A stretch of DNA of 64,000 nucleotides, taken from assembly GCA_934097085.1 (NCBI GenBank), contig CAKONK010000001.1, forward strand, positions 73,845 through 137,844. The letters run 5' to 3'. Position numbers and translations under genes: made by a program. Of this stretch, positions 34,933 through 35,625 are shown one piece after another. This DNA is from an uncultured Bacilli bacterium. Lineage in GTDB: Bacteria > Bacillota_I > Bacilli_A > RF39 > UBA660. Numbering within the stretch: the first letter of the stretch is position 1; each line of letters opens with the position of its first letter. Below the pieces are notes generated by a model. The model was not told where the DNA came from, searched no databases, and was given only the letters and a program-made list of their open reading frames with translations.

Positions 34933-35293
34933 ATCATCACCAACACTATTTTATAAAAAAAGAAATAAAAATTATGTCAAATAATGTCTAAAGGTTATTT
35001 TATATTTCATTTTGAAAAAAGTAATTTTTTTATTGTTTTCGAAATAACTATATATTTAGTAACAAGTAAAAAGGAATGACAACGCCATTTCCTTTTACCA
35101 TTATTAAAATAAAAAGTGCCCCGCTTACAGTAATGTAAGTTGAACGTATACTCTATTGGTAGCACTCGCAAAGAGTTACGAGTAGCTCCACTAATTGTAA
35201 GACATTTATCTTACAAATTAAATATAACAAAAAATATAATGAATTTCAACCTTTTTCAAAATAAAAAATATAATTTTTTACAAACGTTTGTTA

Positions 35294-35322
35294 TTGACAT
35301 AAATTCTAGCCAATGGTATCAT
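35294..35322 (+). promoter_or_regulatory. Near-consensus sigma-A promoter for the 25-aa ORF transcript
   Basis: TTGACA (35294-35299), 17 nt spacer, TGgTATCAT (35317-35322). Confidence 0.55.
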
Positions 35323-35393
35323 TAATATAGGAAGTCAAAGTAAAGCGGGCGCTGCCACTAAACTCATATTTAATTAGAAAGTGAGGTGGTATA

Positions 35394-35471
35394 ATGACAA
35401 CAAGATTTAAAAATGATTTACTTATTATAATTATACTCATCTTGGTTTATATCATTGTAAGACTAGTCTAA
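35394..35471 (+). CDS. 25-aa hydrophobic peptide MTTRFKNDLLIIIILILVYIIVRLV (type I toxin-like small ORF)
   Basis: Strong SD GTGAGGTGG 5 nt before the ATG. One TM helix flanked by basic residues. Has its own promoter and terminator. Below the ORF-track size cutoff. Confidence 0.5.
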   Translation: MTTRFKNDLLIIIILILVYIIVRLV

Positions 35472-35511
35472 AAAAAGCGCCTTAATCTATATTTGCTTAT
35501 AGATTAAAGCG
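35470..35511 (-). terminator. Intrinsic terminator of ftsZ (minus strand)
   Basis: On the minus strand: GACGCTTTAATCTATAAGCAAATATAGATTAAGGCGC followed by TTTTTTT. It abuts the stop codon of the + strand small ORF. Confidence 0.7.
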
Positions 35512-35524
35512 TCAATCATTTTAT

Positions 35525-35566
35525 GGTAGCGCTCGCACAGCAATTTACGAGTAGCTTCCTTTTTTT
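35525..35566 (+). terminator. Intrinsic terminator of the small-ORF transcript (plus strand)
   Basis: Hairpin GGTAGCGCTCGCACAGCAATTTACGAGTAGCTTCC followed by TTTTTTT. A related hairpin without a U-tract occurs at 35158-35189. Confidence 0.55.
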
Positions 35567-35625
35567 ATTTTATGTAAGTTTTGTTCTTACATACCTAATA
35601 TAGCATATTTTATTTAGTTAGTCAA

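Follow-up and report, generated by a model that had tools for sequence, protein, structure and literature searches.

A candidate chromosomal type I toxin-antitoxin-like module between ftsZ and spoIIGA of an uncultured gut Bacilli bacterium

Type I toxin-antitoxin systems are hard to detect by homology. The toxin of this class is a hydrophobic peptide shorter than 60 residues (PMC6562991), and its key determinants are the pairing of the Shine-Dalgarno (SD) sequence with an anti-SD, the terminator loops, and a long-distance interaction of the mRNA's 5' end with its 3' end (PMC8594479). About two dozen curated families are known, nearly all of them described in Proteobacteria and Firmicutes that are in culture; there are 13 families of type I antitoxins in Rfam and 24 families in T1TAdb (PMC8594479). 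In the systems txpA/RatA, bsrG/SR4, bsrE/SR5 and yonT/SR6, a 3' complementarity of 100-140 bp leads to cleavage by RNase III and to the decay of the toxin mRNA (PMC6562991). In this work we analyzed a stretch of 64,000 nucleotides (the window, C1:73845-137844) from the genome of an uncultured Bacilli bacterium (GCA_934097085.1; 1.26 Mb, 25 contigs, ~26% G+C), and specifically the ~700-bp gap beside ftsZ, which separates this gene from spoIIGA. The gap appears to hold three unannotated genes, one for a small peptide and two for antisense-type small RNAs. We propose that it probably carries a type I toxin-antitoxin-like module, located on the chromosome and belonging to a family unannotated and undescribed in the libraries searched, with the architecture of the 3'-overlapping Bacillus systems (bsrG/SR4, txpA/RatA); the peptide is the candidate toxin and the antisense RNA that faces it the candidate antitoxin. 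All RNA ends and promoters given below are predictions from the sequence, based on promoter and terminator positions, and not mapped ends.

The peptide gene and the antisense RNA gene that faces it

On the plus strand, the promoter TTGACA-17-TGgTATCAT (35294-35322), with 11/12 matches and an extended -10, is the best promoter-like site of the region. A promoter-like match alone is not significant in this AT-rich DNA, where 14 were found and 9.5 expected; terminator-like sites amounted to 3, with 0.2 expected. The mRNA predicted from this promoter has ~240 nt (35329-35568), its ends being set by the promoter and the terminator, and includes a leader of ~60 nt, the SD site GTGAGGTGG (35381-35389) and an open reading frame (ORF, 35394-35471) that encodes the hydrophobic peptide of 25 amino acids MTTRFKNDLLIIIILILVYIIVRLV. 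This peptide has a hydrophobic core of 17 residues and a single predicted transmembrane segment, and with less than 60 residues it falls within the small hydrophobic peptides of type I systems. Downstream of the ORF, a bulged hairpin followed by U7 (35525-35566, plus strand, -10.2 kcal/mol) may act as the terminator of the peptide mRNA or, alternatively, as the 3' arm of a long-range helix.

The minimum free energy fold of the peptide mRNA (-66.2 kcal/mol, z = -5.4) brings its two ends together: the 5' leader (AGGAAG..GUAAAGCGGGCGCUGCCAC) pairs with the 3' end (GGUAGCGCUCGC..UUUAC..GCUUCCU). The leader arm of this helix, GTAAAGCGGGCGCTGCCAC (35340-35358, plus strand), carries a CCAC that doubles as anti-SD, and in the predicted fold the SD is mostly paired (probability unpaired 0.07) through CCAC...GUGG and CUCA...UGAG. 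Hence the cis elements that keep a type I toxin mRNA inert according to PMC8594479, that is SD/anti-SD pairing and a 5'-3' long-distance interaction, are both found in this molecule.

The minus strand carries a second gene. Its promoter, TTGACT-17-TGcTATATT (35625->35597), has a -35 whose first base directly follows the ftsZ stop codon, and the predicted product, antisense RNA 1, is an RNA of ~123 nt with three stem-loops (35470-35592, -33.9 kcal/mol, z = -5.4). It is perfectly complementary to the ~100 nt that make up the entire 3' untranslated region (UTR) of the peptide mRNA, and extends as far as the stop codon, where its terminator (35470-35511), a stem of 14 bp (35511->35478) followed by U7, ends exactly; this terminator is predicted to end also the ftsZ read-through transcripts. 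By sequence, then, the locus includes an antisense RNA gene that has both a promoter and a terminator of its own and whose product, as in type I systems, is complementary to the mRNA of the candidate toxin. The antisense core GCGAGCGCUACC resembles the leader arm GCGGGCGCUGCC, and both compete for one 3' segment. An RNase III gene is present in the same genome.

The initial annotation of this region, made from the sequence alone, had already described the plus-strand promoter, the SD, the ORF of 25 codons and the plus-strand terminator, as well as the minus-strand hairpin and U-tract that abut the ORF stop, and all of these were recovered here, the hairpin with 14 pairs and U7. It missed the two minus-strand promoters, 35625->35597 and 35249->35221. 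It had also proposed that the ftsZ mRNA and the peptide mRNA are mutually antisense over ~100 nt; the overlap holds, but the partner is more than the 3' end of ftsZ, given that it is a dedicated RNA gene, with a promoter and a terminator that are its own and are conserved. Likewise, the overlap with the 3' end of ftsZ concerns its 3' UTR and not the coding sequence, which ends at 35626.

From these features the following mechanism can be envisaged. The plus strand would give an mRNA of ~240 nt for a single-transmembrane peptide, and the minus strand an antisense RNA of ~123 nt from its own strong promoter. Folding and covariation suggest that the mRNA would be kept quiet by a local hairpin in which the SD is paired with the CCAC of the leader, and by the long-range helix between the leader and the 3' UTR, which would close the molecule. 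By analogy with txpA/RatA, bsrG/SR4, bsrE/SR5 and yonT/SR6, the antisense RNA would bind the 3' UTR, displace the leader and form a duplex of ~100 bp; RNase III would cut this duplex, and the peptide would not be made. If the antisense RNA fell away, the peptide could insert in the membrane and arrest or kill the cell.

This architecture is shared with bsrG/SR4 of the B. subtilis SPbeta prophage and with txpA/RatA, bsrE/SR5 and yonT/SR6. In all of them the two genes are convergent, the mRNA encodes a small hydrophobic peptide and has its SD partly sequestered, the antisense RNA has 100-180 nt and its own promoter, the 3' ends overlap by ~100 nt, and cleavage of the duplex by RNase III is expected (PMC6562991). 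In contrast with this group, the module shows no similarity of peptide or RNA sequence, its mRNA has a covarying 5'-3' closing helix whose 5' arm is mimicked by the antisense core, its copies lie between housekeeping genes and not in prophages, and no SR4-like switch of the SD is predicted. In addition, the overlap is in the 3' UTR and only touches the stop codon, whereas in most Gram-positive families it also covers the ORF (T1TAdb). A full-length toxin mRNA closed by 5'-3' pairing is known from hok/Sok and AapA/IsoA, where it is translationally inert, and these systems also have several chromosomal copies, some of them decayed (PMC8594479). However, in hok/Sok and AapA/IsoA the target of the antisense RNA is the 5' region and the mRNA is activated by 3' processing, while here it is the 3' arm itself that the antisense RNA would bind; those systems are Gram-negative and without sequence homology to the module, whose host belongs to a low-GC Gram-positive lineage. 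Fst/RNAII (par of pAD1) and SprA1/SprA1as are Gram-positive and also have a convergent 3' antisense RNA, a toxin of ~30 amino acids and an ORF that is not overlapped, but in them the functional interaction involves the 5' region and direct repeats and not the overlap, and neither the Fst Pfam family nor the Rfam antitoxin models match the module.

Scans of four peptide types against Pfam (Fst included) and of eight peptide types against NCBIfam gave no match to a toxin family, only chance-level matches below the cut-offs; the families covered by these models, TxpA/BsrG, BsrE, YonT, Fst/Ldr and Hok/Gef among them, all failed to match. An Rfam scan of the antisense RNA (RatA, SR4-type, RNAII, Sok, Sib, IstR and others) gave nothing at gathering score, the best match being an unrelated Streptococcus small RNA model with E = 1.8. 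An exact look-up of six of the peptides in a collection of 15 billion proteins found none of them.

A repeated family with conserved peptide and RNA structure

Motif and BLAST searches identified four loci of this kind in the same genome. Beyond the window they are located in contigs C16, with two complete tandem modules, C9, with one RNA-only copy and one complete module, and C6, with an RNA-only copy. The number of matches ranged from 0 to 8 per genome among 20 genomes of the same genus, and no credible match was obtained in 19 genomes outside it. Together with a pattern scan of one genome per species, the searches in this genome and in the genus provided 35 distinct copies of the antisense RNA, 22 of which are full modules. 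In almost all 35, the antisense promoter shows an extended -10 (TGCTATATT or a one-base variant) placed 17 nt from a -35 of the TTGAC/TTGAAA type, which is degenerate in a few copies. The toxin promoter, the GAGGTGG SD site at the correct spacing and the leader are likewise conserved across the full modules, and the -10 of the peptide mRNA is kept in most of the 22. The RNA-only copies (those in C6 and C9, the one at 35108-35249 of the window, and several in relatives) have an intact antisense gene; that such copies are common in the family is expected if antisense genes outlive their toxins. The other copies of this genome adjoin transketolase-like, valyl-tRNA-synthetase-like and large MMPL-like membrane-protein genes and a cysteine-desulfurase/SufU-like pair, names that were read from the translations without a family search.

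In an order-level pattern scan the 5' box of the antisense RNA rose above background only in the same genus and in one other genus (G135, with five copies, plus G240), single matches with two mismatches being at the level of a control with the backwards pattern. No match to the module was found in the phage, plasmid and viral-contig collections, and an origin from a mobile element was discarded, because there was no phage or plasmid match and the only pattern match in a viral contig was unrelated GC-rich DNA. Pattern matches in Flagellimonas and Porphyromonas revealed no module when the sequence was read; those in Burkholderiales, Cellvibrionaceae and Candidatus Buchananbacteria were left unread and assumed to be due to chance, about nine chance matches being expected at the size of the collection.

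The peptides of the family have 25-34 amino acids and include a type of 25 residues (MTTR[FL]KND.LIIIILILVYII...), a type of 27 (MTKKTHDAIQQIIILLLCACILCLILK) and four types of 34 that end in ILK, IFK or IIK; all of them are polar at the N-terminus and contain a long hydrophobic stretch. The two genes of the 27-residue type differ at 6 codons, and 6/6 of these differences are synonymous. In the group of 25 residues the differences at the three codon positions number 21/6/45, the codon changes are synonymous in 35 cases and non-synonymous in 21, and the hydrophobic core LIIIILILVYII is invariant, yet its codons differ. This substitution pattern indicates that the peptide is translated and under purifying selection.

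The structure of the RNAs is also conserved. For the 5'-3' helix, an in-register alignment of 17 distinct pairs of leader and 3' end showed 91.7% of the cells paired, versus 86.3% in shuffles (0/500 reached the observed value) and 32-44% in slid registers; 13 cells were changed on both sides (0/500 shuffles), and compensatory changes occurred at 4 pairs. For instance, the pair 26-33 is AU in 8 cases, GC in 5 and GU in 4, and is never unpaired. Two distant types of the module (L038 and L024), whose RNA ends were set by the promoter and the U-tract, have wholly different sequences and nevertheless keep the 5'-3' closure, with helices of 24-28 bp (z ~ -7.5). The RNAalifold consensus of the 35 antisense RNAs, from a MAFFT alignment, retained only 5 pairs, given that it put the variable loops and both types of terminator out of register; therefore the helices were tested on in-register sub-alignments. 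The commoner type of antisense terminator had 94.6% of the cells paired and 5 compensatory pairs, and it includes an invariant U.G and several G.U that on the other strand would turn into C.A or A.C mismatches. In 33/35 copies the fold of the antisense strand is more stable than that of its complement (mean -35.7 vs -29.0 kcal/mol), and the difference is largest in the RNA-only copies.

The tandem modules of C16 (C16:11190-11900; L078 ~2690-3400) encode peptides of 34 and 25 amino acids. In the second of them the promoter is degenerate (TAGTATGAC) and the leader has diverged and mismatches the 3' arm in the usual register; this module may be decaying.

Insertion history and alternative explanations

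The ftsZ-spoIIGA junction was located in 19 genomes of the genus, including the genome under study (G000). In 13/19 the gap has 50-97 bp and is empty; in the longer of these empty gaps (72-97 bp, in G015, G005, G006 and G011) a short hairpin and T-run after the ftsZ stop are followed by a spoIIGA promoter of the TTGACA...TATAAT type. In G000, G007, G008, G013 and G014, which are the closest relatives (SpoIIGA at least 90% identical), the gap has ~700 bp and contains a block that, compared with the empty sites of related species, spans ~645 bp (34981-35625). From filled and empty sites we infer that the block is an insertion that replaced the terminator of ftsZ, and it appears to have entered recently, in the ancestor of this subclade of five species. 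Neither terminal inverted repeats nor target-site duplications were seen at its boundaries. The remaining genome, G016, has in its gap (L052) an unrelated ORF of ~190 codons with a lipoprotein-type signal (MKKKFYIAILLCSIIFLGSC...) instead of the module, and thus the gap appears to accept insertions repeatedly.

The flanks of the five filled sites are nearly identical and the central cassette differs among them (L046-L049 compared with 35290-35530 of the window): G000 has the type of 25 residues, G007 and G014 the type MRQCYREIF..., and G008 and G013 the type MKKSTKVFF..., with two types of terminator. The closest copy of the cassette of the window, 90% identical, is not at this junction but in contig 1 of G007 (L002 / L013), directly after the sigE stop, where it encodes the peptide MTTRFKNDLLIIIILILVYIIAKLI; in the window, the gap downstream of sigE has 116 bp and no module. 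Both observations point to recombination or cassette exchange among paralogous modules.

These comparisons bear on the initial annotation, which had read a type I locus from the membrane peptide, the structured UTRs, the repeats and the antisense overlap. The core of that reading withstood all the in silico tests, in contrast to the ftsZ end as antisense partner, the decayed duplicate and the link to cell division. The comparison that it proposed, of related genomes at the ftsZ-spoIIGA junction, showed the block in 5/19 genomes, the studied one included, with a peptide cassette that is not constant among them. The connection that it drew to the operons of division and sporulation commitment, and with it a dedicated role of this kind, is unsupported, given the 13 empty sites, the copies that lie elsewhere beside unrelated housekeeping genes, and the variation of the cassette.

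A functional part of the ftsZ/spoIIGA region, in which a bidirectional terminator and antisense device couples the commitment to division and sporulation to a membrane peptide, would account for an antisense promoter that abuts the ftsZ stop, for the presence of antisense sequence in ftsZ transcripts, for a position kept in five species and for a sister copy that abuts sigE in G007. We regard it as improbable, since in 13 species of the genus the site is empty, has only 50-97 bp and shows an ordinary ftsZ terminator and spoIIGA promoter, the filled sites carry different toxin cassettes in different species, and other copies are found beside transketolase-, valyl-tRNA-synthetase-, cysteine-desulfurase/SufU- and MMPL-like genes. 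Another explanation is a small membrane protein that does no harm, such as one that modulates a membrane complex, and whose expression is tuned by a cis-antisense RNA in a type I-like architecture that includes no toxin. The peptide is indeed very short (25 amino acids) and its toxicity is a candidate property only, the SD is only moderately sequestered in several paralogues, and the purifying selection speaks for a translated product and not for its action. Against this, the genomes of a single genus range from 0 to 8 in copy number and most species of the genus lack the module at the ftsZ site, different peptide types have been swapped at an orthologous site, toxin-less copies (C6, C9 and 35108-35249 of the window) keep an intact antisense gene, and the mRNA is locked by the 5'-3' helix. 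Given that variable copy number, swapping, toxin-less copies and the mRNA lock are hallmarks of selfish toxin-antitoxin cassettes rather than of a housekeeping small protein, this explanation seems unlikely to us. Finally, the element is repeated, hairpin-rich, AT-rich and intergenic, and promoter-like hexamers are common in such DNA (14 vs 9.5 expected), as in a non-coding repeat similar to repetitive extragenic palindromes (REP) or miniature inverted-repeat transposable elements (MITE) with fortuitous small ORFs. The bias towards third-position substitutions (with one ORF pair that has 6 synonymous and 0 non-synonymous differences), the strong SD conserved at the correct spacing, the two extended -10 promoters conserved at fixed positions, and boundaries that show no terminal inverted repeats or target-site duplications make such a repeat very hard to believe in.

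Some points weigh against the type I toxin-antitoxin reading that we prefer. A length of 25 amino acids is at the short end of the range of type I toxins, and the polar residues of the peptide are N-terminal, in contrast with the charged C-terminal tail common in Gram-positive toxins. The covariation tests used sequences that are related to each other, as paralogues and orthologues, and a structure that came from one of these sequences, so that the shuffle statistics overstate independence and the counts should not be read as probabilities. An SR4-like switch, in which binding of the antisense RNA would tighten the sequestration of the SD, was considered and rejected, because folding predicts no change in SD accessibility: the probability of the SD being unpaired is 0.07, and 0.09 when the 3' UTR is blocked, and it hardly changes in most copies. 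Control would then rest on degradation alone.

A further idea concerns ftsZ itself, which after its stop codon has no own terminator before that of antisense RNA 1. Given that no terminator precedes 35470, the ftsZ transcripts must contain the antisense RNA sequence. The ftsZ mRNA, with the complete antisense RNA as its 3' UTR, might be itself a source of antitoxin, directly or after processing; pairing with the peptide mRNA would expose the 3' end of ftsZ to RNase III, and production of the peptide would depend on ftsZ transcription, with its release when transcription of the division genes falls. We consider this doubtful; if true, division and a membrane toxin would be linked by a checkpoint that arose by accident but is open to selection, in a subclade of spore-forming gut Bacilli with small genomes.

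If the type I reading of the module is correct, it would add to this class a further family, confined to uncultured gut Bacilli whose genomes have ~1.2 Mb (their records carry labels such as Mycoplasma sp. CAG:472 and Ca. Caccenecus). The module would combine two designs that usually belong to separate lineages, a 3'-overlapping antisense RNA of the Gram-positive style and a 5'-3' mRNA lock of the Gram-negative style, and an antisense core that mimics the leader arm would offer a compact model for the opening of an mRNA lock by antisense binding. The swapping of cassettes and the retention of toxin-less antisense genes would provide a natural series for the study of module turnover and of cross-protection among paralogues.

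Antisense-like RNA 2, flanking genes and distant module types

The third predicted gene of the gap is located on the minus strand, where the promoter TTGAAA-17-TGtTATATT (35249->35221) would give antisense-like RNA 2, of ~109 nt and with three stem-loops (35108-35216, -35.3 kcal/mol, z = -5.1). The promoter is nearly identical across the five insertion-bearing species, with one substitution per hexamer. RNA 2 keeps the GCGAGUGCUACC core and faces no intact peptide gene; its promoter, its 5' hairpin and the GCGAG.GCUACC core are kept in 5/5 of the filled-site species, and the type of terminator varies. RNA 2 (35108-35249, minus strand) also retains 12 + 12 nt of complementarity to the terminator hairpin of the peptide mRNA, which means that it could act in trans. 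We suggest that it is a surviving toxin-less copy of the antitoxin, and its targets in trans could be the toxin mRNAs of paralogues.

The initial annotation had taken 35070-35216 for a degenerate duplicate of the whole module. The repeats on which that was based do exist (35157-35173 vs 35524-35540, 35176-35187 vs 35545-35556, and 35075-35090 vs 35393-35408), but no promoter, leader or hydrophobic ORF of a peptide gene was found there, and instead of a decayed module the segment contains a conserved antisense RNA copy without toxin. A segment at 35117-35129 had also been described as complementary to the leader at 35339-35351. The leader segment in fact occupies 35340-35352, the match covers only ~10/13 positions with a gap, and 3/5 species have another sequence in place of 35117-35129. 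With an imperfect match and a hairpin that is replaced in other species, this pairing is probably incidental.

Between RNA 2 and the spoIIGA promoter there is a conserved hairpin, GTAAAAAGGAATGACAACGCCATTTCCTTTTAC (35066-35098), which contains ATGACAACG in its loop. In 4/5 species it is fully paired only on the minus strand, by virtue of G.U pairs, and its positions 35075-35090 are identical to the ORF start (35393-35408) at 13/16 sites. It may be the last relic of the start of a toxin ORF, or a back-up terminator that insulates spoIIGA.

The genes that flank the gap are all on the minus strand: sigE (33501-34187) and spoIIGA (34174-34932) on one side, and ftsZ (35626-36678) and ftsA (36691-37935) on the other. 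The promoter region of spoIIGA, TTGACA...TATAAAAT, is kept just outside the insertion. The related public records are metagenome-assembled genomes (MAGs) of uncultured gut Bacilli, labelled "Mycoplasma sp. CAG:472", "uncultured Bacilli" and "Bacillales bacterium UBA6448".

Distant types of the module were observed in other gut MAGs (L038, 4150-4540; L024, 3560-4350; L025, L030, L070 and L069). One of these records is labelled Erysipelotrichaceae RUG13428 and one Muribaculaceae, the latter probably mis-binned, and the others are Ca. Caccenecus-like. They share the antisense promoter and the 5' box CTTACATAYTTAATATAGCA, and differ in their peptides (e.g. MKKREYNIRFLRYISIILFLIIILIIVIKK and MHEERKTLYIIIILLILVLLKLC) and in their 5'-3' helices.

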